From assembly GCA_022706625.1 (NCBI GenBank), contig JAKJCD010000001.1:10251-40591 (forward strand): a DNA stretch of 30,341 nt, given 5' to 3'. A program made the translations under genes and the position numbers. Source of the DNA: Bacillota bacterium (GTDB lineage: Bacteria; Bacillota; Clostridia; Peptostreptococcales; Anaerovoracaceae). A model generated the notes under the pieces. The model searched no databases, had not been told where the DNA came from, and saw only the letters and a list, made by a program, of their open reading frames with translations. This document shows positions 20,682 to 29,625 of the stretch, in pieces. Position 1 is the first letter of the stretch, and the number at the start of each line of letters is the position of its first letter.

Positions 20682-20718
20682 AGCCAAAACGCCGGGTAAG
20701 TATCCGGGTTTTTTGGCT
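20682..20718 (+). terminator. Probable terminator after rlmD
   Basis: AGCCAAAA...CCGGGT-aagt-ATCCGG...TTTTGGCT imperfect hairpin containing a T-run. Confidence 0.6.
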
Positions 20719-20789: not shown

Positions 20790-20818
20790 TTGCCTGACAG
20801 TAAGTGAGTATATAGAAT
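20790..20818 (+). promoter_or_regulatory. Putative sigma-A promoter of the SipW locus
   Basis: TTGCCT(20790-20795)-N17-TAGAAT(20813-20818). Confidence 0.6.
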
Positions 20819-20880
20819 TCTATTGAGGGAGTCTTATTGCTTTCTGATCTATTTGATTAATCCACTGGAGGTCGAAGGAA

Positions 20881-21498
20881 TTGAGGGTTCTTATCGTTGA
20901 TAATCAACCCCTGGTGCGGAAGGGAATATTGCAGGTCCTTTTTTCCGAAAGAGAAAATCAACAGTTTATAGAAGCATCCGGTATTGCTGAAGCATCTACT
21001 ATCCATAAGAATAATCCCGTTGATATAATTTTCGTAGAGTTGGATCTGTCCGATGGCAGCGGGTTTGATCTGATAAACAACATAAAGGCAATGGGGGAAA
21101 ACGGACCTAAATTCATATTGATGGCATCCTCGATCAGCATCTTTGAATTCCGAAGAGCCAAAGAATTGGATGTTGAGGGTTATATCCTGAAAGAAACAGA
21201 TGCTGATGATCTTAAATATGCTTACGGCCTTATCCTTCGCGGAGAAAAGTACTATCCGCCAAAGCTGGTGGAAAAAGCACTGAATATGAATGATAAAGAC
21301 GCTATGTGCCTCCTTACAGACAGGGAGATGGACGTCCTTGTTGAACTCAGTAAGGGACTGACGAACTCACAGATCGGGGATAACCTTTACATTAGCGAAG
21401 GAACGACAAAGAAGCATATCAGCAATATTTTATCCAAGCTCAACATGTCAAACAGAATGGAAGTGCTGTTGTATGCAAATAGTATATACGGTAAATAG
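20881..21498 (+). CDS. Orphan atypical NarL/LuxR-family response regulator (Asp->Glu at the phospho-acceptor position)
   Basis: REC domain (VLIVDNQ..VRKG, DIIFVE, GYILK) plus LuxR HTH (LTDREMDVL..LSKGLTNSQIGDNLYISEGTTKKHISNILSKL); TTG start with GGAGG. Confidence 0.9.
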   Translation: MRVLIVDNQPLVRKGILQVLFSERENQQFIEASGIAEASTIHKNNPVDIIFVELDLSDGSGFDLINNIKAMGENGPKFILMASSISIFEFRRAKELDVEGYILKETDADDLKYAYGLILRGEKYYPPKLVEKALNMNDKDAMCLLTDREMDVLVELSKGLTNSQIGDNLYISEGTTKKHISNILSKLNMSNRMEVLLYANSIYGK

Positions 21499-21543
21499 TA
21501 AAGGGCAGGATAGTTGATTTTTTAGTAGCTCCCGGAGGTAAAT

Positions 21544-22332
21544 ATGCATAAGCTTTTCAACAAAACAGGACTTGTCTTATTATCTGTTGCTTTACTCGGG
21601 CTGCTCGGGACGAGTTATGCCGGTTATACCGGAGAGCTATCAGCCGACACAGAGCTTTCGACCGGCAGTATGGATTTTGAGTTTATCGACATGGAAGTAA
21701 ATGAGGATTTTTTAATATGCATTCAAAAAGGCGAAAATGGAAACATCCAGGATATCTGCGCAGATATAGATTACGATGGAAAGCTTCTTAGCGTAACAGA
21801 TATGGGGCCAATCGATATGTCCTGGTTAGAGGATGGGGACCTAAGGATCATTATCCGTTATGCCATAAAGGCTTCTAATGAACATAGTATAATGAAAGCG
21901 GCAGCGACTGGGAAAAATGAGGGCGCAACAAGGTACATCGGCAGTATACCTCTTGAACGGATTTCGAGAACACCTCGGTGGTATATAGAAAACGGCCAGG
22001 ATATTTGGGGATCCGGCGATGATGAAATAGACTCAGTACCTCAAATCGTTTACAGCCTCCTGCCTGAAACCTTGGGTGATTTTGAGATATACCAGGTTCT
22101 GACCGCAAAAGCAGAAGATGACGGAATGCAAGGAATCATCATACTGGTGCAAACGGAAGTTCCTGTAATTATTCCTGAAGGGCAGGTAACCTTAAGCCAA
22201 TTTTATCTGCCGGAAGAATTGCTTCAAGAGATCTCAGCATCCAAAGATTTAGTGCTTTCAGTTCATGGCTGCTACGGTTTTGAGATCCCTATAAATCTTG
22301 ATCAGTTCAATGCGGGAGGGTGGCCGCTATGA
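21544..22332 (+). CDS. Secreted protein with SipW-class signal peptide (putative minor TasA-like fibre subunit)
   Basis: K-rich n-region, h-region, GTSYA|GYTGELSADTELSTGSMDFEF; C-terminal FEIPINLDQFN shared with the 23962 protein. Confidence 0.7.
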   Translation: MHKLFNKTGLVLLSVALLGLLGTSYAGYTGELSADTELSTGSMDFEFIDMEVNEDFLICIQKGENGNIQDICADIDYDGKLLSVTDMGPIDMSWLEDGDLRIIIRYAIKASNEHSIMKAAATGKNEGATRYIGSIPLERISRTPRWYIENGQDIWGSGDDEIDSVPQIVYSLLPETLGDFEIYQVLTAKAEDDGMQGIIILVQTEVPVIIPEGQVTLSQFYLPEELLQEISASKDLVLSVHGCYGFEIPINLDQFNAGGWPL

Positions 22333-22637
22333 AGGGGAAAGTATTATTGTTAATAGCTACGACTGCATTGACTTTATTGATACTAACCACGAGTTACGGT
22401 TATTGGACGGATCATCTGAGCATAGTTGGAGAAGCCGGCTTTGAGTTCCGCTTACCTGTTATCAACGATATCACCATCGAAGACCAAAGCCATGATGAAG
22501 CTTCTGATGATATCGAGAGGTCCGGAGCGCTGTCGGATAAGACAACGGTTACGACAGAGGAAGATTCTGAGCAACAGGGTACGATCCCGGAAGGTTCGGA
22601 GGAACAAGGCGTCGATGAAAGTACAGAATTTCAATAA
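22329..22637 (+). CDS. Small secreted protein with SipW-class signal peptide and acidic disordered tail
   Basis: ATGA overlap with the upstream gene and GGGAGG SD; TTSYG|YWTDHLSIVG; the remainder is D/E/S/T-rich. Confidence 0.7.
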   Translation: MKGKVLLLIATTALTLLILTTSYGYWTDHLSIVGEAGFEFRLPVINDITIEDQSHDEASDDIERSGALSDKTTVTTEEDSEQQGTIPEGSEEQGVDESTEFQ

Positions 22638-23826
22638 GTATCGAAGGGTCAGCGTCACACTGCTGTTCCTTTTTACAGGACTTGCCCTGTTGCCTGTTTT
22701 GATCGAGCTGCAGCAGGGCAGTTCTTATATCTTTAGCAGAAAAGTGATACCCGCTCTTTGGTGTGTTTTTTTAGTCATTATGTTCTTTTTTGTTCCCAGA
22801 GTCCATGCTGCCGGCAAACTGATACAAAGAGAGATAATTTATGTTGAAGCAGGCGTCTGTGCAATAATAATCATCTCTGTAAAAATACTGACGGGATCAA
22901 TCCTCGGTCAGCTCGGAGGTAGCCCTTATGATTTATCTATGACCGGGATCCTTGGAAATCTGTTTTCGGTTTTGCCCGGTTTAGCAGCCAGGGAGACAAT
23001 ACGTAGCTATATACTCTGTACATATTGCAGCAAGCAGAATATAAAAATCTTTATATTTCTTACTATATTTATGACTGCATTCAGTTTGAACTTTTCAAAG
23101 CTGCTGTTATCACTTGATATGGAAAATATATCTGTTTTTCTTTCTACCGAAGCGGGCCCAAAACTAACCGGGAACATTATGCTATCATATCTGGCACTCT
23201 ACGGCGGCCCTTTAGCAGCTATACTTTATGGGGGTATCCAGGAAATATTTCATTGGTGTTCTCCCATACTTTCTTCATTAAACTGGCTTGCAGAAGGAGC
23301 CGTCGGCATTCTTGTCCCTGTCGGTTTTATTTTATTCATCGTTGGAAAATATGAGAATAAGAAACTTCGGTTCAAAGAGGAAAAGGAGCAAAGGAGAGGT
23401 GTTATTGGGTGGTCTGTCACAGCCATATTTTCTATCGGTCTTCTTTGGTTTATAGTGGGAGTGTTTCCCATAGTTCCATCGGTTGTAGCCACAGGAAGCA
23501 TGCAGCCCCTGATATATCCCGGAGATGTTATCCTGCTTCGGCAGATGCAAACAGAAGAACAGCTGAGAAGTCTTTCAGCGGGTGATGTTATACAGTTTCA
23601 AAGAGATCAGATCCGCATCACACATCGAATAACAGAAATACTGGATGATGGTATCGGCAACCTGACCTTCAGGACAAAAGGAGACAACAACTCTGCAGAG
23701 GACAGCCGCCTTGTCCTGCCAAACGAAATTAAAGGAACACTGATAACAGTAGTCCCAAAGGTTGGCTACCCGGCTCTGTTAATTAAGAAATCTCCAAACA
23801 ACAGAAATAGAGATATCGAGTTTTGA
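22615..23826 (+). CDS. sipW: SipW/ER-type signal peptidase I fused to an N-terminal polytopic membrane domain
   Basis: TGSMQP (Ser295), ITHR (His337), TKGDNN..ED, V.KVGY; about 7-8 hydrophobic segments before the catalytic domain. ATG 22615 follows GGAGG; the track's TTG 22426 start is spurious overlap. Confidence 0.88.
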   Translation: MKVQNFNKYRRVSVTLLFLFTGLALLPVLIELQQGSSYIFSRKVIPALWCVFLVIMFFFVPRVHAAGKLIQREIIYVEAGVCAIIIISVKILTGSILGQLGGSPYDLSMTGILGNLFSVLPGLAARETIRSYILCTYCSKQNIKIFIFLTIFMTAFSLNFSKLLLSLDMENISVFLSTEAGPKLTGNIMLSYLALYGGPLAAILYGGIQEIFHWCSPILSSLNWLAEGAVGILVPVGFILFIVGKYENKKLRFKEEKEQRRGVIGWSVTAIFSIGLLWFIVGVFPIVPSVVATGSMQPLIYPGDVILLRQMQTEEQLRSLSAGDVIQFQRDQIRITHRITEILDDGIGNLTFRTKGDNNSAEDSRLVLPNEIKGTLITVVPKVGYPALLIKKSPNNRNRDIEF

Positions 23827-23850
23827 ACATACCTCTAAAGGAGTAGAGAA

Positions 23851-23931
23851 ATGGTCCTAAGAGATTATACAAGTGTGGTCTGTCGTGTAATTCCGGGGCT
23901 CCGGAAGCCGGTATATAATAACTGCAGGTGA
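23851..23931 (+). CDS. Possible 26-aa micro-ORF (MVLRDYTSVVCRVIPGLRKPVYNNCR)
   Basis: AAAGGAG 7 nt upstream of ATG; not in the supplied track; coding status unproven. Confidence 0.25.
   Translation: MVLRDYTSVVCRVIPGLRKPVYNNCR
23891..23919 (+). promoter_or_regulatory. Possible internal promoter for the major subunit, with an inverted repeat over the -35
   Basis: TTCCGG(23891-23896)-N17-TATAAT(23914-23919); palindrome TTCCGG-ggct-CCGGAA at 23891-23906. Confidence 0.4.
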
Positions 23932-23961
23932 AAACCAATTATATTAAAAGGAGAAATAAGA

Positions 23962-24942
23962 ATGAAGAAAAAAGTATTAGCATGTGTACTTGCGTGTGCG
24001 ATGCTGATTCTGGGCATGGGATATGCCTACTGGACAGACAGCCTGCAAATCGACACATCGGTAACCACAGGAGAGCTTGAAGTTAAATTTGTTGATCTGG
24101 CTTTATACGGACAATATGCCGGAACAGACAACGAAAAAACATGGGCTATAATTGATGGCGTCGGATCGCCGGGTTATGTTGACAACTACTTCTTTGATCG
24201 TGGAAACGAGAATAATGCGAATGGCCTGTATAATATCATAGCAACCCCAGCTAAGTTAAACGAATATAAAAACAGAGTTGAAGGCTATACAAAAACAGAA
24301 TTCAATGCGTGGCTGGACGATCCCATTAAGCTGGATGTAACTGTCGGACCTTATGGAACAAATACGGATTCCTCCAGCACTATTAAAATTGATTTGAAGA
24401 AAATGTATCCGGGCTATGCACAGGTCTTCCAATCTGATATTGTAAACATCGGAACTGTAGCTGCAAAACTAAGCGATATCAAGATTACGGGTATAGATGT
24501 TCCTAATGATTATATGAAAGATATTATCGGAGTATCTTTAAGAGTTTTGAGAGAGTATGCAGAAACCCCTGCCGGACCGACACAGGATCATGTTAATGTA
24601 TTCTCAACAGCAGCTCTTCTCCCCACTGACTACTTTACTCTCGGGGGCGTTGATTTTATCCGGCTTTCCGCACTGGAGGAACTGGATTTGGGCGCAGTTA
24701 TTGATGAGAACGGAGAGCTTCTTTATGTGCTGCCTGATAAAAACAGAATGGATGTGTATTTAGGTATAGCAATGGATCCGGATATGGAAGGAAATTATAC
24801 TTCAGGTATTTCCAGCGATCCGAGCGATGTTTCTGATTATTGGACTGAAAACCAGACCGGGGTGAGATTCAGCCTCAACTTCCTGTGGGATCAGTTTAAT
24901 GTCGGTAATCCTACCGGAGGAACACATAATCATTTGGAATAA
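23962..24942 (+). CDS. TasA/CalY(camelysin)-like secreted protein with SipW-class signal peptide (putative major fibre subunit)
   Basis: MKKK n-region, GMGYA|YWTDSLQIDTSVTTGELEVKF, TasA-like MYPG-x9-VNIGT motif, terminal FSLNFLWDQFN strand; strong AAAAGGAG SD. Confidence 0.8.
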   Translation: MKKKVLACVLACAMLILGMGYAYWTDSLQIDTSVTTGELEVKFVDLALYGQYAGTDNEKTWAIIDGVGSPGYVDNYFFDRGNENNANGLYNIIATPAKLNEYKNRVEGYTKTEFNAWLDDPIKLDVTVGPYGTNTDSSSTIKIDLKKMYPGYAQVFQSDIVNIGTVAAKLSDIKITGIDVPNDYMKDIIGVSLRVLREYAETPAGPTQDHVNVFSTAALLPTDYFTLGGVDFIRLSALEELDLGAVIDENGELLYVLPDKNRMDVYLGIAMDPDMEGNYTSGISSDPSDVSDYWTENQTGVRFSLNFLWDQFNVGNPTGGTHNHLE

Positions 24943-24980
24943 AGAAGACTACTTTTAGTAATAGCATTCCTCGAAAGATT

Positions 24981-25007
24981 GGGTGCCTTAAATTCTTTAA
25001 GGCACCC
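24981..25007 (+). terminator. Perfect 12-bp hairpin after the major subunit gene (leaky terminator or mRNA 3'-stabiliser)
   Basis: GGGTGCCTTAAA-ttc-TTTAAGGCACCC followed only by TGTTATT. Confidence 0.7.
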
Positions 25008-25060
25008 TGTTATTACCGGTAATAGTACATATTTGAAGGCAGTGGAAATCGAGGTAAGAT

Positions 25061-26101
25061 ATGAAACTCAAGCTACATAAAAAAACAAAAAAATATATCC
25101 TCTCAATCATGATATTGCTCCTGTTGGTTACAGGGATCCAAATCTACAGTATTGTAAAAAGTGAAAGAACGATAACCAAAGAAAAGGTGCTATTTGAATA
25201 CAGCTGCCAACCCGCCGTGGATTACAGCGTTGTTATCCACCCCAATGAATTATACTCAGGGACAATACTGGAGGAATCAACCTATTACAGCAAACTGCTG
25301 CTGGATTATATCGAGGCCAGTTTCGCTTTCGATTACCAAGGCAGTTATTCAGCACCGTTAAGGATCCAGTATCAGGTCGTTGCCAGTGTCAACGGTTACC
25401 AAGGTCAATCAGACAGTAAAACCATTTACTGGTCAAAGAGCTTTCCGCTGACAGAGGAAAAGACCATAGAAACAGAAGGGGACAGTTTCAGCACAGAAGA
25501 ACAAATAACCTTTAACCTGTCGGATTACGACTCTTTTGCTGTGAGAGCTAAGCAGATTTCCGGCATGAAAGTCTCGAATGAGGTAGTGGCAGAATTGACC
25601 GGAAAGATCATAGCCCAAGCTGCAGGCAAAGAAGTCGAAATCCCTTTTTCTTCAAAGCTGCGGGCTCCGCTTTTGGAAGATGTATTTAAGATAGACAAAA
25701 GTATCACCGAACCTATTAAAGGCACCGTGACGGAAACAGAGGAAGTGGCCGTGCCAATTGATCGGGCCAAACTATCCCTGCTTGCAGTTCTGATGCTGTT
25801 ATTGATTGTCGCAATCCCGGTATTGTTATTCATAATAAAAGAACCCGATGAGCTTACTCTTTTACGAAAAAAAAATAATGGCCTGCTCAAAAACTACGGC
25901 AGTCGCATGGTTGCCATGAAAGAAATCCCCAGCTTCGAATCCTGCAGATTATACCAGGTCTACAGCATAAAGGATATGATAAAAATCGCTGATGAAGTGC
26001 AAAGGCCTATCATTTATATACCTGATGAGAGCACCCTTGTACGTAATAATGAACTGTTGATAATCAATGAAAATAGCCTTTACCGCTGGTATTCCGCATA
26101 A
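25061..26101 (+). CDS. DUF5305-like two-TM membrane protein
   Basis: N-terminal TM; Y.V...PNELY......YYSKL..DYI...F.F extracellular domain; second TM; cytoplasmic YG...V....P.....V.SI.D..KIA.E...PI tail. Family call is from memory and from its position beside sipW. Confidence 0.7.
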   Translation: MKLKLHKKTKKYILSIMILLLLVTGIQIYSIVKSERTITKEKVLFEYSCQPAVDYSVVIHPNELYSGTILEESTYYSKLLLDYIEASFAFDYQGSYSAPLRIQYQVVASVNGYQGQSDSKTIYWSKSFPLTEEKTIETEGDSFSTEEQITFNLSDYDSFAVRAKQISGMKVSNEVVAELTGKIIAQAAGKEVEIPFSSKLRAPLLEDVFKIDKSITEPIKGTVTETEEVAVPIDRAKLSLLAVLMLLLIVAIPVLLFIIKEPDELTLLRKKNNGLLKNYGSRMVAMKEIPSFESCRLYQVYSIKDMIKIADEVQRPIIYIPDESTLVRNNELLIINENSLYRWYSA

Positions 26102-26104
26102 CAA

Positions 26105-27352
26105 TCAAGGCTTAGGAAGGGCTATTTTCCCTTCTATGGCGCTGGCGGCGGCAACTGCAGGAGAACCAAGATAAATATCAACAGAGGCAGGACCCATGCG
26201 CCCGAGAAAGTTTCTGTTGTTGGTTGCTACTATTCTTTCTCCTTCGCTCAGAATGCCGCCTGCCCTGCCGCAGCAGAGTCCGCAGCCAGGGTGTGTTATA
26301 ATTGCGCCGGCACTGATCAGAGTGTTGAGAATGCCGCTTCTTGCTGCCTGTTTATAAATCTCTCTGCTTGCCGGCGTTACTATCAGCCTGACATGGTCGG
26401 CGGCTTTTTTACCCTTCAGGATATCTGCGGCAACCGTAAGATCTTCGAGTCTTCCGTTTGTACAGGATCCGATAAAAACCTGATCGATAGGGATGCCTTC
26501 TAACTCGGCAACCGGTTTAATATTGTCCACAGAAGATGGGCAGGCCATGACCGGAACGATCTCCTCTGCATTATAGTGTATTTCATTTACGTAATCGGCA
26601 TCCCGGTCTCCGCTGATCTTTGGTAGATCTTCAAAAAGGATACCGCAGTATTCTGCAGTTTTCTCATCCGGTTCAAAAATAGCAGCCTTTGCTCCGGCCT
26701 CGACTGACATGTTTGCTATGGTCATGCGGGAAGCAATGCTCAAATCAAAAATCGTACTACCTGTGAATTCAAGTGCTTTATAGTTAGCTCCGTCGGCTCC
26801 CAAATCCCCTATAAGCCGAAGTACAATATCCTTTGCCGTCACGTTGTCCGGCAGCTTCCCATTTACTGTTACCCGAACAGTTTCCGGGACTTTTACCCAA
26901 AGCTGTCCCGTACCCAAAATTGCCGCCATCTCAGTGTAGCCTACCCCGGAGGAAAATGCGCCTATACTCCCATAGGTAGTTGTATGAGAGTCGGTACCGA
27001 ACACCACGTCTCCCGGTTTTACGTAGTGCGCCTCCAACATCAATTGGTGGCATATACCGTCACTCCTGTGGATATTCTTTATTTCGTATTTGTCGGCAAA
27101 AGAATCGCCGATCTTAAAATGACGGATGTCTTCCACACTGCTTGCCGGAACCAGGTGGTCGTAGATAAGCACCGCTTTAGAGGGGTCCCAGATTTTGCTG
27201 AAGCCCATTTCTTCAAATTTTTCGGCCACGAAGGGTATAAAGATATCATGTATCATTACCCGGTCCACATTTACGGTAACAATGTCGTTTGCCTGTATGT
27301 TATCCCTCTTTAAGTTGTTGATTATTATTTTTTCTATACTGGTATGTTTCAT
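26105..27352 (-). CDS. leuC: Aconitase-family dehydratase large subunit (LeuC/HacA/DmdA type), copy 2
   Basis: VMIHD, YDH, GICHQ, GTDSHT, NMSVEAGAK, FIGSCTNGR, GCGLC, TNNRNF.GRMG; 415 aa. Confidence 0.85.
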   Translation of the reverse strand: MKHTSIEKIIINNLKRDNIQANDIVTVNVDRVMIHDIFIPFVAEKFEEMGFSKIWDPSKAVLIYDHLVPASSVEDIRHFKIGDSFADKYEIKNIHRSDGICHQLMLEAHYVKPGDVVFGTDSHTTTYGSIGAFSSGVGYTEMAAILGTGQLWVKVPETVRVTVNGKLPDNVTAKDIVLRLIGDLGADGANYKALEFTGSTIFDLSIASRMTIANMSVEAGAKAAIFEPDEKTAEYCGILFEDLPKISGDRDADYVNEIHYNAEEIVPVMACPSSVDNIKPVAELEGIPIDQVFIGSCTNGRLEDLTVAADILKGKKAADHVRLIVTPASREIYKQAARSGILNTLISAGAIITHPGCGLCCGRAGGILSEGERIVATNNRNFLGRMGPASVDIYLGSPAVAAASAIEGKIALPKP

Positions 27353-27369
27353 CGGACCCTCTATATTAT

Positions 27370-27852
27370 TTATATGTTTTTATTTTTCATCGCCGCCACG
27401 AGCCCTCCGGCTTCAATGATCTCCATAAGATTTGGAGGCAGGGGAGCAAGATCATATTTAGCTTCCTTATATTCAATGTATTCTCCGATCACTGCAGCAA
27501 TGTATTCTCCTTCCGAAATTAGATCCGGGATCAGACTGTGTTCGATCAACAACAGGCCGTTGTTAATGGCATTTCGATAGAAGATCCTGGCAAAGGATTT
27601 AGCGATAACGCAGCCTATTTTAAGTTCCTTTATAATCTCCGGGGCCTGCTCACGAGAAGAACCGCATCCGAAATTCCTGCCTGCGACTATAATGTCTCCC
27701 GGGGCAATTAATTCTGCCAGTTCGGGACGAAGAGGCGAGAAAGCATACTTTTTCATTTCTTCGATTCTTTTCATAGCCAGATACTCCGTTGGTATGATAA
27801 TATCCGTGTCTATGTTATCACCCAATATCCAAATCTTTCCCTTGATTACCAT
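27370..27852 (-). CDS. leuD: Dehydratase small subunit (LeuD/HacB/DmdB type), copy 2
   Basis: DNIDTDIIIP.EYL, NFGCGSSREQAP, SFARIFYRNAIN.GL, GGL; 160 aa. Confidence 0.85.
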   Translation of the reverse strand: MVIKGKIWILGDNIDTDIIIPTEYLAMKRIEEMKKYAFSPLRPELAELIAPGDIIVAGRNFGCGSSREQAPEIIKELKIGCVIAKSFARIFYRNAINNGLLLIEHSLIPDLISEGEYIAAVIGEYIEYKEAKYDLAPLPPNLMEIIEAGGLVAAMKNKNI

Positions 27853-27895
27853 GCGCTACCTCACTATACAACGTTTTACCGGCTCTGTGGAATAT

Positions 27896-29140
27896 TCAGA
27901 CGGCACGAACTATTTTACCAGCCATGGCGGAGGCGGCCACTGTTGCTGCTGAACCTAAATAGACTTTTGACTCCTTATGGCCTGCTCTTCCTTTAAAGTT
28001 TCTTGTACCTGTAGATATAAGGACTTCACCTTCGCCGATAACACCCTGGCAGCTTCCCCAGCATACGCTGCAGTTGCTGTTCACGACCATTGCGCCCGCA
28101 TCAATAAATATACCCATAAGACCTTCTTCCAGAGCTTTCTGATAAACTGAATTTGAAGCGGGAGAGATCAGAAGCCTTACATGGTCTGCTATTCTCTGCC
28201 CTTTCAGGATTTCCGCAGCGATACGAAGATCTTCAATCCTTCCGCTGTTGCAGGAACCAATAAATGCCTGATCGATTTTCACATCTTTAACAGATTCTAC
28301 ATTGACGACATCGTCTATATTATCGGGCCTTGCCACTACAGGTTCAATTTTCCCCAGGTCATAGAAGTATTCTTTTTCATAACGGGCATTCTTATCGCTT
28401 TTGAAAAGGTGTTTGGCCTGACGCCCATGGGCCGAAAGATATTCGACCGCTTTTTCATCCGGTTCAAATATTCCCGTTTTAGCTCCTGCTTCTACCGCCA
28501 TATTTGTGAGTGCCATGCGATGGCCGATGCTCATGGCATGGGCTCCGCTGCCTGTAAATTCCATTGTCTTATAGGAGGCGCCGCCGGCACCTATATCGCC
28601 TATAATTGTTAAAATCAAGTCTCTCGGATAAACCCCCTCTCTAAAACTCCCGGATAAATGGAAAAGCAGGGTTTCCGGCACCAAGACCCATGATCTGCCC
28701 GTGACCATGGCATAAAGGAAGTCAGTATTACCCACACCCGTTCCGAAAGCTCCCAGGGCACCATAGGTGCAGGTATGGGAATCTGCCCCGAAAATTAATT
28801 CGCCTGATCGCACATACTCCTCCATCATGATTTGATGACACACGCCTTTTCCTTCATAAAAAGCGATTTCATGTGTTTTAGCAAAGTCGCGGATCTTCTT
28901 GTGGGCGGCAGCGGTCTTTGGACTGTCTGCCGGCATGTTGTGATCGATGATGAACACAAGCTTACTTTTGTCAGCGATCGCTGGGTTTTTAAGCATAGAG
29001 TTATACATGTCTATGGTCAGATGGGTTGTGCCGTCATTGCTCATCATCCTGTCAATGCTGACCGTGTGGATATCTCCGGCCTTTGCATGGTCGATATTTG
29101 CAGCCGCAGCAATGATTTTTTCACTGATTGTCATTCCCAT
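27896..29140 (-). CDS. leuC: Aconitase-family dehydratase large subunit (LeuC/HacA/DmdA type), copy 1
   Basis: GMTISEKI, MSND, IDH, GVCHQ, GADSHT, FIGSCNSGR, NCSVC, T.TRNFKGR.G; 414 aa. Confidence 0.85.
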   Translation of the reverse strand: MGMTISEKIIAAAANIDHAKAGDIHTVSIDRMMSNDGTTHLTIDMYNSMLKNPAIADKSKLVFIIDHNMPADSPKTAAAHKKIRDFAKTHEIAFYEGKGVCHQIMMEEYVRSGELIFGADSHTCTYGALGAFGTGVGNTDFLYAMVTGRSWVLVPETLLFHLSGSFREGVYPRDLILTIIGDIGAGGASYKTMEFTGSGAHAMSIGHRMALTNMAVEAGAKTGIFEPDEKAVEYLSAHGRQAKHLFKSDKNARYEKEYFYDLGKIEPVVARPDNIDDVVNVESVKDVKIDQAFIGSCNSGRIEDLRIAAEILKGQRIADHVRLLISPASNSVYQKALEEGLMGIFIDAGAMVVNSNCSVCWGSCQGVIGEGEVLISTGTRNFKGRAGHKESKVYLGSAATVAASAMAGKIVRAV

Positions 29141-29142
29141 TC

Positions 29143-29625
29143 TTAAAGAACCTCCTCGTTAAGAAAGCTGACCAGACCTCCATGGTCAAGTATTCTCTGC
29201 ATGATAGGCGATAGTTTTGTGCAGGACAGGATGTTATTTTCGATTTTAAGGGATCCTTTTGACAAGTCAAGCTCCGCCTGATCGCCATGGTGTGCTGCAT
29301 TGTAAGCTTCTTTACATATTATAGCGGGAAGTCCGATATTTATAGCGTTTCTAAAGAATATTCTTGAAAAAGACATCGCAATTACAGCTCTGATCCCCAG
29401 CTCCTTTAATATTCGCGGGGCCTGTTCCCTTGACGATCCACAACCAAAATTCTCGCCGGCAATTATGATGTCTCCGGATTTTACCACCTTTGCAAAATCC
29501 GGCAGAATCGGCTCAAAGGCAAAAGCCTTCATTTCGTCGATAGTCGGAAGAAGCAGGTATTGTGATGGTATAATCTGATCCGTATCTACATTATTGTTGA
29601 ATTTCCATATTTGTGATCTGTCCAC
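29143..29625 (-). CDS. leuD: Dehydratase small subunit (LeuD/HacB/DmdB type), copy 1
   Basis: NNVDTDQIIP.QYL, NFGCGSSREQAP, SFSRIFFRNAIN.GL; GTG start after AAGGAG. Confidence 0.85.
   Translation of the reverse strand: MDRSQIWKFNNNVDTDQIIPSQYLLLPTIDEMKAFAFEPILPDFAKVVKSGDIIIAGENFGCGSSREQAPRILKELGIRAVIAMSFSRIFFRNAINIGLPAIICKEAYNAAHHGDQAELDLSKGSLKIENNILSCTKLSPIMQRILDHGGLVSFLNEEVL

Follow-up and report, generated by a model that had tools for sequence, protein, structure and literature searches.

A six-gene locus of an uncultured Bacillota bacterium predicted to build an AbpX/TasA-type extracellular fibre with its own signal peptidase

In Bacillus and in several archaea, biofilms are held together by fibres of the TasA superfamily. 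Here we analysed a 30,341-nt stretch of DNA (hereafter the window) from an uncultured Bacillota bacterium of the family Anaerovoracaceae (GenBank assembly GCA_022706625.1, contig JAKJCD010000001.1, positions 10,251 to 40,591 of the forward strand). An open reading frame (ORF) listing shows six intact ORFs, all on the plus strand between positions 20881 and 26101, and we find it probable, at roughly 75% as judged from sequence comparison, that the subunits encoded in this locus, once cleaved by the signal peptidase of the locus, assemble into an AbpX/TasA-type extracellular fibre through donor-strand complementation. The locus encodes three Sec-exported, very acidic proteins, each carrying a SipW-type signal-peptide junction followed by an amphipathic N-terminal strand, with a dedicated peptidase and a DUF5305 protein alongside. 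The six genes are as follows, with ↓ marking the predicted cleavage site.

20881..21498, plus strand: NarL/LuxR-family response regulator, 205 aa (Pfam Response_reg and GerE)
21544..22332, plus strand: acidic secreted subunit, 262 aa, candidate tip or minor subunit; junction SYA↓GYTGEL, N-terminal donor-strand-like segment, beta-sandwich head, C-terminal strand ending DQFN
22329..22637, plus strand: mini-subunit, 102 aa, from the ATG at 22329; signal peptide, junction SYG↓YWTDHLSIVG (one donor strand), low-complexity tail
22615..23826, plus strand: dedicated signal peptidase, 403 aa; polytopic over residues 1-~272, then a SEC11/SipW-type S26 domain (TIGR02228)
23962..24942, plus strand: predicted major subunit, 326 aa, AbpX clade of the TasA superfamily; junction GYA↓YWTDSLQIDTSV; strong ribosome-binding site (RBS) AAAGGAG
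25061..26101, plus strand: DUF5305 protein, 346 aa (PF17231)

A first-pass annotation of this DNA had proposed that three proteins of the locus carry a common cleavage signature, and the sequence bears this out. The junctions read TSYA↓GYTG in the 262-aa protein, TSYG↓YWTD in the 102-aa protein and GYA↓YWTD in the 326-aa protein, and among the 8852 ORFs of at least 50 aa in the genome the motif occurs elsewhere only in one obviously spurious ORF, arguing that its presence in the three is not due to chance. The source genome is 81% complete, and this and all other genome-wide negatives apply to its assembled part. The cut-off of TIGR04088, the SipW-dependent-type signal peptide model, is reached only by the 326-aa protein (23.5 bits versus 19), to which the 262-aa and 102-aa proteins are tied by alignment (hhalign) and motif. 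The mature secreted proteins have a pI of 4.05-4.2 and contain 15-28% Asp + Glu (pI 4.22 and 15.1% in the ~304 aa of the mature 326-aa protein; 28% in the 78 aa of the mature 102-aa protein), as reported for the AbpX family, which has a pI of ~4 and ~15% Asp + Glu and is also present in archaea (bioRxiv 10.64898/2026.01.04.697558).

Characterisation of the AbpX branch dates from 2026 and concerns a single hyperthermophilic archaeon, Pyrodictium abyssi, whose solved AbpX fibre (PDB 9SJ2/9RHP) is held together by calcium-linked donor-strand complementation (bioRxiv 10.64898/2026.01.04.697558). A profile built from 44 homologues of the 326-aa protein and searched against all PDB sequences matches AbpX (9sj2, E 3.6e-5; 9rhp, E 0.004) and no other family, and single-sequence searches give the same top match. 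The aligned region covers the N-terminal donor strand and ~70 core residues around a YPG motif, a block that the two proteins have in common together with their pI and acidic content. The predicted mature N-terminus of the 326-aa protein is Y-W-T-D-S-L-Q-I, and its W2, D4, L6, I8, V12 and E18 are in register with AbpX W2, E4, L6, L8, A10, I12 and D18, of which the first six form the donor strand and D18 is a calcium ligand (bioRxiv 10.64898/2026.01.04.697558). Across the 44 homologues, no variation is seen at W24 or T25, and conservation of D26 reaches at least 90%. In the AlphaFold2 (AF2) model of the protein, which has a predicted local distance difference test score (pLDDT) of 81.7, the first mature residues, i.e., the donor strand, are disordered, and the AbpX monomer is likewise reported with a disordered N-terminal strand (bioRxiv 10.64898/2026.01.04.697558). 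The groove cluster of AbpX consists of D18, D46, D48, E52 and E142 (bioRxiv 10.64898/2026.01.04.697558). In the HMMER alignment, E18 of the 326-aa protein corresponds to D18, and N134, D136 and S139 correspond to D46, D48 and E52, so that one of these three groove ligands is kept as Asp, while E142 has no aligned counterpart.

Fold comparison points in the same direction. A Foldseek search of the model against the PDB returns a sole match below 1e-3, the TasA fibre 8aur (E 7e-4, probability 0.98), and an exhaustive VIA search of 48,161 chains ranks first the TasA fibre (Z 7.0), the Sulfolobus Saci_0406 thread (5.9) and Pyrobaculum AbpA (5.7), all of them TasA-superfamily fibres with solved donor-strand structures. 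Named AFDB cluster matches are SipW-cognate, camelysin and LPXTG-anchor proteins, and more than 100 homologues of like length are at best named "signal peptide protein". The window protein differs from AbpX in being twice as long, owing to a ~65-aa insertion after the first strand and a C-terminal extension ending WDQFN. The two are bridged by a 194-aa homologue in the syntenic Natronincola locus, which matches AbpX directly (E 3e-5) and aligns to the 326-aa protein in two blocks around the ~65-residue insertion, arguing that the latter is an enlarged AbpX-clade subunit. These profile and fold matches place the 326-aa protein in the AbpX clade of the TasA superfamily, as one of its long members, and it is most likely the fibre shaft. 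Membership of the TasA/camelysin family itself (Pfam Peptidase_M73) was considered and rejected, as a search with E up to 0.1 finds PF12389 in none of the three secreted proteins. The TasA-type reading of the first-pass annotation thus stands for the 326-aa protein at the level of the superfamily, in the AbpX clade and not in TasA/Peptidase_M73 as Pfam defines it.

The 102-aa protein is reduced to a signal peptide, one strand and a tail. Its strand, YWTDHLSI, is near-identical to YWTDSLQI of the major subunit, and searches of Pfam, NCBIfam and the PDB with the protein give no match. Its gene lies 5' of the peptidase gene and overlaps it, which is the position of tapA in Bacillus subtilis, where the tapA stop overlaps the sipW start and TapA donates its N-terminal strand to start TasA filaments (PMC10151520). 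TapA is described as a strand-donating initiator (PMC10151520, PMC9674648), and a TapA fragment comprising residues 44-57 is enough for biofilm formation in vivo (PMC10151520). Neither sequence nor domains relate the 102-aa protein to TapA, the PDB search being empty, and the likeness is one of functional analogy only. Among 27 loci surveyed (described below), a mini-subunit gene lies directly 5' of the long peptidase in 17 by a strict pattern (regular expression); inspection by eye adds the window and locus L006, giving 19, and with locus L036 as a borderline case the count is 19-20. The design in these loci is a signal, the strand x-W-x-x-x-L-x-I-x-G-x-I and a variable acidic or proline-rich tail of ~30-260 residues, the tail being of low complexity and not conserved across loci, so that the strand alone is conserved. 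By analogy of position and design, the 102-aa protein appears to resemble a TapA-type strand donor, either an initiator or a groove cap, more than a terminator. Most mini-subunits have Lys or Arg as residue 4 of the predicted mature strand (for example WQKDL, WEKTL, WKRDL; loci L002, L005, L037-L040, L042, L048 and L049), where the major subunits and the window's own genus have Asp or Glu. A basic residue at this position, which in AbpX helps to bind calcium, might let the mini-subunit cap bind the groove without calcium.

The 262-aa protein has no Pfam or NCBIfam match and belongs to a small family restricted to the window's lineage, with 30 representatives among 1.84 billion sequences in an exhaustive search; a word-based homologue search returned only the protein itself. 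The conserved parts of the family are the junction, the first strand, with Y at position 2 and, at position 4, D in relatives and G in the window, followed there by E5, and the C-terminal DQFN strand. In an hhalign comparison with the major-subunit family, the probability is 96.6% for the signal together with the first strand, 74% when the C-terminal strand is taken by itself and 5% for the core; the two terminal strands are all that the 262-aa and 326-aa proteins have in common. The AF2 model is a beta-sandwich (pLDDT 82.5), for which VIA ranks the knob of adenovirus fibre and the head of reovirus sigma1 highest, with Z 6-7, a range that, as the tool warns, may mean only a common arrangement. 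The family profile matches nothing in the PDB, Foldseek returns nothing below 1e-3, and an AFDB search finds only the protein's own small family. With these results and the 5% core alignment, a TasA-like core was rejected for this protein, which may instead serve as a tip or minor subunit whose head is specific to its lineage.

The nature of this head bears on whether the three are ordinary secreted or surface proteins, such as enzymes, adhesins or matrix proteins, that are served by a dedicated peptidase and do not polymerise by strand donation, a reading that we consider unlikely. TasA-like proteins were formerly annotated as camelysin metalloproteases, and one AFDB cluster match is indeed named camelysin metallo-endopeptidase; moreover, the 262-aa head resembles receptor-binding knob domains and not TasA, the locus contains no anchor or usher-like component, and fibre polymerisation is itself argued from homology. 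However, Peptidase_M73 is not detected, and the best fold matches are all solved donor-strand fibres. The conserved N-terminal strand with W2 and D4, disordered in the monomer model, matches the AbpX donor strand position by position, and for a strand-only protein conserved 5' of the peptidase, strand complementation is the one obvious role. These points favour a strand-complemented fibre over independent secreted proteins.

The dedicated peptidase had been described in the first-pass annotation as a polytopic SipW with a Ser/His active site of the endoplasmic reticulum (ER) type, a description that the domain and residue analyses corroborate. The protein exceeds the cut-off of the archaeal-type signal peptidase model TIGR02228 (63.4 bits versus 51.85), and a hydropathy scan reveals seven hydrophobic segments in its N-domain (residues 1-~272) and an eighth, at residues 271-287, preceding the catalytic domain. 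The catalytic residues S295 (GSMQP), H337 (THRI) and D357 (GDNN) are invariant in 35 homologues, and a profile of these full-length homologues matches human SEC11A/SEC11C (E 1e-17 to 1e-16), with which the peptidase itself pairs at GSMQP/GSMEP, THRI/VHRV and KGDNN/KGDNN. Judging from the profile match, the aligned motifs and the invariant residues, the peptidase is therefore an ER/archaeal-type Ser-His-Asp enzyme and not a Ser-Lys dyad enzyme. Its score against the Bacillus SipW equivalog NF046067 (64.9 bits) is far under the cut-off of 190, indicating an enzyme of the same type as SipW and not its orthologue. A separate LepB-type peptidase is encoded elsewhere in the genome, so that the locus enzyme is an extra, dedicated one. 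The full-length fusion of ~400 aa is widespread in Bacillota, occurring in Anaerovoracaceae, Tissierellia, Natronincola, Desulfitobacterium, Dehalobacter, Niameybacter and Rossellomorea.

In an ESM Atlas structure search, the N-domain resembles a cluster of PF02517 (CPBP/Rce1-like) proteins with TM-scores of 0.65/0.64 over 236 residues, compared with 0.28-0.36 for unrelated membrane proteins. An identity as a CPBP/Abi protease was nevertheless rejected: PF02517 has no match across the genome or on peptidase residues 1-272, hhalign of the N-domain with 22 CPBP proteins gives a probability of 1%, and the EExxxR, FxxxH and HxxxN/D motifs are not conserved, the conserved residues being P104, Y105, E127, R130, F212, P217 and W224, with H213 variable. 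What remains is a resemblance at the level of the fold, and the N-domain is read as a non-catalytic membrane scaffold. Stand-alone proteins with the predicted fold of the N-domain, 221-283 aa long, are found in the ESM Atlas at TM-scores of 0.68-0.87 in Bacillota, Chloroflexota, Saccharimonadota and archaea, indicating that the domain (window 22615-23430) also exists unfused. Some CPBP/Abi-family members confer bacteriocin immunity, and 'ribosomally synthesized peptide with SipW-like signal peptide' is the name that TIGR04088 proteins carry in certain databases, so that, together with the resemblance of the N-domain to the CPBP/Abi fold, one might suppose the mini-protein to be a bacteriocin-like ribosomal peptide and the polytopic domain to serve in its processing or immunity. 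We regard this as highly improbable, with neither PF02517 nor hhalign giving a CPBP link and the catalytic motifs not conserved; in addition, large AbpX-like proteins are constant partners in these loci, and in the mini-protein it is the strand that is conserved and not the low-complexity tail, which ranges over ~30-260 residues.

The last gene encodes the two-transmembrane (TM) DUF5305 accessory protein that had been anticipated, with a PF17231 score of 109.6 bits versus a cut-off of 29 (E 1.9e-31) and hydrophobic segments at residues 13-31 and 241-259. Its layout comprises an N-terminal TM segment, an extracellular domain of ~210 aa, a second TM segment and a cytoplasmic domain of ~85 aa. 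We propose that it is an accessory subunit of the signal peptidase, as in PMC11821415, PMC12337348 and the AbpX preprint (bioRxiv 10.64898/2026.01.04.697558).

A gene-neighbourhood survey covered 27 loci, namely the window, those of Natronincola, Rossellomorea and Dehalobacter, three from close relatives and 20 from further genomes. In every one of them the long peptidase adjoins a DUF5305 gene and one to six AbpX-like genes, in agreement with the co-occurrence expected of a dedicated system. Of 401 genomes sampled evenly across the phylum, 26 contain the long peptidase, and all 26 also encode DUF5305. The locus is kept in eight of the ten other species of the window's genus, and close relatives retain the same six-gene order at the same chromosomal site. 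Where the window has a single major gene, loci L037 (5316-8872) and L045 (1682-6190) contain four to six tandem AbpX-like paralogues. In Rossellomorea vietnamensis, a short SipW-like gene (195 aa) stands beside a gene for a protein with a faint Peptidase_M73 match (L004:13137-14381), ~5 kb from the long-peptidase/DUF5305 locus, suggesting that a classical TasA-type pair and an AbpX-type module lie side by side in this genome.

The surveyed loci also bear on the function of the product. About half of them contain a HisKA_3 kinase and a NarL-type regulator, and some contain SLH proteins or a sortase with LPXTG proteins, in line with the published account of AbpX loci (bioRxiv 10.64898/2026.01.04.697558). 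B. subtilis TasA was reportedly first found as a spore-associated protein, and the locus could by this precedent make a spore-associated appendage or coat component and not a vegetative biofilm fibre. Beyond the precedent, the regulator carries a GerE-type helix-turn-helix, a feature common to all NarL-type regulators, and the window holds nothing spore-specific. Against a spore role, the loci of relatives are under ordinary HisKA_3 kinase/NarL-type pairs and stand with cell-wall anchors of the SLH or sortase type, the neighbouring genes include none for sporulation, and the AbpX family is also present in archaea, which do not form spores; we therefore judge such a role quite unlikely.

DNA near-identical to window positions 21544-25100 (97-99% of sampled words) was found in sludge, anaerobic-digester, biogas-fermenter and wastewater metagenomes and in one soil metagenome, across at least eight studies, a recurrence that argues that the organism is a common digester inhabitant. 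At the RNA level, four sludge metatranscriptome libraries yielded a few contigs of 150-310 nt at a depth of 2-4, which fall in the major-subunit, peptidase and DUF5305 genes; they hint weakly at expression and are too thin to define operon structure.

The first gene of the locus matches Response_reg (PF00072, E 3e-14) and GerE (PF00196, E 7e-17), the helix-turn-helix of the latter being intact. In its receiver domain, Glu53 occupies the phospho-acceptor column, D7-N8 lie in the acidic pocket, and Ala is found at the Thr/Ser switch position. No histidine kinase is encoded in the locus, as judged from the ORF list and inspection of the neighbourhood. These features agree with the atypical LuxR-type regulator that had been noted at the outset, and they depart from NarL/FixJ regulators that have a phospho-acceptor Asp and a cognate kinase. 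In the regulator alignment, the acceptor column holds Asp in the kinase-linked homologues, Glu in the window and locus L006, and Gly in locus L007. The Glu at the acceptor position and the lack of a kinase together point to phosphorylation-independent control in the window's lineage, where the regulator would most likely be a constitutively "on-like" or ligand-controlled activator. In an Anaerovoracaceae relative (GCA_050953485.1; L008:4183-4516), gene calling splits the regulator into a 50-aa N-terminal fragment and an 81-aa GerE-only protein, and most of the receiver domain seems, from these gene calls, to be lost. This fits a trend at the regulator of the kinase-less lineage, from Asp to Glu to Gly to no receiver.

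From these data we infer a mechanism of polymerisation, its dependence on calcium, the order of the subunits and the roles of the membrane parts, starting from the predicted cleavage sites. By homology to AbpX and TasA, the peptidase would cut after (S/G)Y(A/G) and free an N-terminus of the form x-W/Y-T-D, and the freed strand of one 326-aa subunit would enter the open groove of the next by donor-strand complementation, with W2 as a clamp and D4 and E18 at the positions of AbpX calcium ligands. By analogy with tapA-sipW-tasA, the 102-aa protein would give the first strand, capping or activating the open groove at the distal end. The 262-aa protein, with its donor strand, C-terminal DQFN strand and different head, would be a tip or minor subunit and may receive the strand of the mini-protein. 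The seven-helix N-domain and the DUF5305 protein would act as non-catalytic partners that hold or position the peptidase, and the regulator would act without phosphorylation. The expected product is a thin, negatively charged fibre that would bundle or gel with cations and could form biofilm or floc matrix in anaerobic sludge. Because the locus encodes no anchor, the fibre would either be shed as matrix or be retained by a factor from outside the locus. The dedicated SipW-type pathway for a hetero-polymeric fibre put forward in the first-pass annotation is thus retained, by homology, fold and conserved neighbourhood, for the 326-aa major subunit and for the membrane module of peptidase and DUF5305; it is not borne out for the head of the 262-aa protein, which is not detectably TasA-like.

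A more speculative extension, which we hold to be doubtful, is that the long peptidase, a SEC11-type enzyme joined to a catalytically dead CPBP-like domain, forms together with DUF5305 a membrane assembly platform that goes beyond processing. Such a platform would couple the cleavage of each precursor to the entry of its freed strand into the groove of the next precursor, itself still tethered in the membrane, the fibre would grow from its base and be held by its last uncleaved signal peptide, and the mini-protein would serve as a general initiator or cap. Base growth of this kind would explain the loci that lack an anchor gene. If true, it would represent a distinct route of Gram-positive pilus assembly beside sortase pili and type IV pili.

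Several points weigh against a strand-complemented fibre. The AbpX profile match, at E 3.6e-5, spans only ~95 of the 304 mature residues of a protein twice the length of AbpX, and the fold matches to its predicted model, at Z 5.7-7.0, are middling and fall under the level that VIA calls clear. The core of the 262-aa protein has no detectable TasA-like homology. Of the AbpX groove calcium ligands, D46 and E52 face N and S in the alignment and only D48 faces an Asp, making calcium dependence uncertain. There is no anchor gene in the locus, and the RNA evidence is thin, with runs that were selected through these very genes and in which DNA carry-over is possible. More generally, everything beyond the domain calls rests on homology, and the bacterial members have so far yielded no observed fibre, cleavage site or polymerisation.

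Comparison with known systems places the locus close to the AbpX loci. These loci, bacterial and archaeal, encode a ten-TM signal peptidase, DUF5305, AbpX-like major and minor subunits, tip proteins, SLH/LPXTG anchors and two-component regulators, and the bacterial ones, found in Bacillota and Chloroflexota, had their layout described bioinformatically in January 2026 (bioRxiv 10.64898/2026.01.04.697558). The window has in common with them the many-TM signal peptidase, DUF5305, extra subunits and a regulator, and differs in lacking an SLH/LPXTG anchor and a histidine kinase, in its pseudo-receiver regulator and in its lineage-restricted 262-aa family. The first-pass annotation had regarded the architecture as uncharacterised, which does not hold, with the DUF5305/peptidase pairing known from the Tafi system (PMC11821415, PMC12337348) and the bacterial layout given in the AbpX preprint (bioRxiv 10.64898/2026.01.04.697558). 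The locus is a further example of a recently described (2025-2026) fibre-operon design and no new category. The Glu-receiver regulator without a kinase, the lack of an anchor gene and the unusually large major subunit are particulars of the window.

In Haloarcula, the Tafi signal peptidase TafD and the DUF5305 protein TafG accompany the strand-donating pilins TafA/C/E (PMC11821415; PMC12337348), and deletion of tafD blocks processing and fibres (PMC11821415). The window likewise clusters a dedicated signal peptidase I, a DUF5305 protein, several predicted strand-donating subunits and a regulator; in contrast, the subunits are Tat-exported in most haloarchaea and belong to other families, and TafD has four TM segments and a different extra domain. 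With B. subtilis tapA-sipW-tasA, the locus has in common the order of strand donor, peptidase and major subunit, with the first gene overlapping the peptidase start, an ER-type Ser-His peptidase and a jellyroll subunit with an N-terminal donor strand, for which TasA (8AUR) is the best fold match. It differs in having no PF12389 match, in a peptidase that lies under the SipW equivalog cut-off and carries an extra domain of ~270 aa, in the DUF5305 partner, in a mini-protein without the Ig domain of TapA, and in a NarL-type regulator instead of SinR/SlrR. Chaperone-usher pili (Fim/Pap) also use donor-strand complementation of an incomplete beta-sandwich and have specialised tip and terminator subunits, yet the window encodes no periplasmic chaperone or outer-membrane usher; its envelope is Gram-positive, and assembly would presumably be self-driven after signal-peptide cleavage.

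Experimental work on a bacterial AbpX-type member was not found in the literature searched. The window extends the same machinery to an uncultured bacterium met repeatedly in anaerobic digesters, sludge and biogas reactors, where the cohesion of flocs and granules matters in practice. It offers a compact version, anchor-less and kinase-less, whose secreted part comprises a single major subunit, a tip-like subunit and a strand-only protein, and this small set is convenient for in vitro work on fibre initiation, the need for calcium and the roles of the extra membrane domain and DUF5305.

With regard to gene layout, the six genes are co-oriented between rlmD and the leuCD cluster, as first annotated, with all ORFs intact. 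By Pfam, the upstream flank is a tRNA_U5-meth_tr (RlmD-like) gene, and the downstream flank, on the minus strand, consists of Aconitase and Aconitase_C (LeuC/LeuD-like) genes. The end of the 262-aa gene and the start of the 102-aa gene overlap in an ATGA (22329-22332), and the stop of the 102-aa gene and the start of the peptidase gene overlap by 23 nt (22615-22637), indicating that these genes are tightly coupled. The major-subunit gene is set apart by a 135-nt spacer before it, its strong RBS and a hairpin after it. Two non-coding elements accompany the genes.

20790..20818, plus strand: promoter-like site (TTGCCT, 17 nt, TAGAAT) 5' of the regulator gene; a weak candidate from a consensus scan only
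24981..25007, plus strand: perfect 12-bp hairpin with a poor U-tract, 38 nt past the major-subunit stop, from a terminator scan

The promoter-like site comes after a terminator-like hairpin of the rlmD-like gene (20692-20707). The intergenic region with the 12-bp hairpin folds at -29.7 kcal/mol (z = -2.3), and the hairpin is probably an mRNA-stabilising or partial-terminator element that would raise the expression of the major subunit relative to the downstream gene.

Domain search and neighbourhood inspection reveal no sortase, LPXTG or SLH feature within the locus, as first annotated, although one sortase on another contig and many SLH proteins are encoded elsewhere in the genome. A hidden anchor or paralogue elsewhere was considered and rejected, the assembled genome containing no second AbpX-like gene and no further protein with the junction motif.

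The rlmD/leuC junction at which the locus resides varies among congeners. An EamA-family transporter gene takes the place of the fibre locus in one (G405; L080:1683-2675), ~9 kb of unrelated genes do so in another (G406; L081), and locus L007 contains both an SSF transporter and the fibre locus. This variability, together with the presence of the locus in eight of ten species, argues that the locus is a discrete, mostly retained module. Downstream in the window (26105-29625, minus strand) lie two successive aconitase-family pairs of large (415 and 414 aa) and small (160 aa) subunit genes, the Pfam families being confirmed for the first pair.

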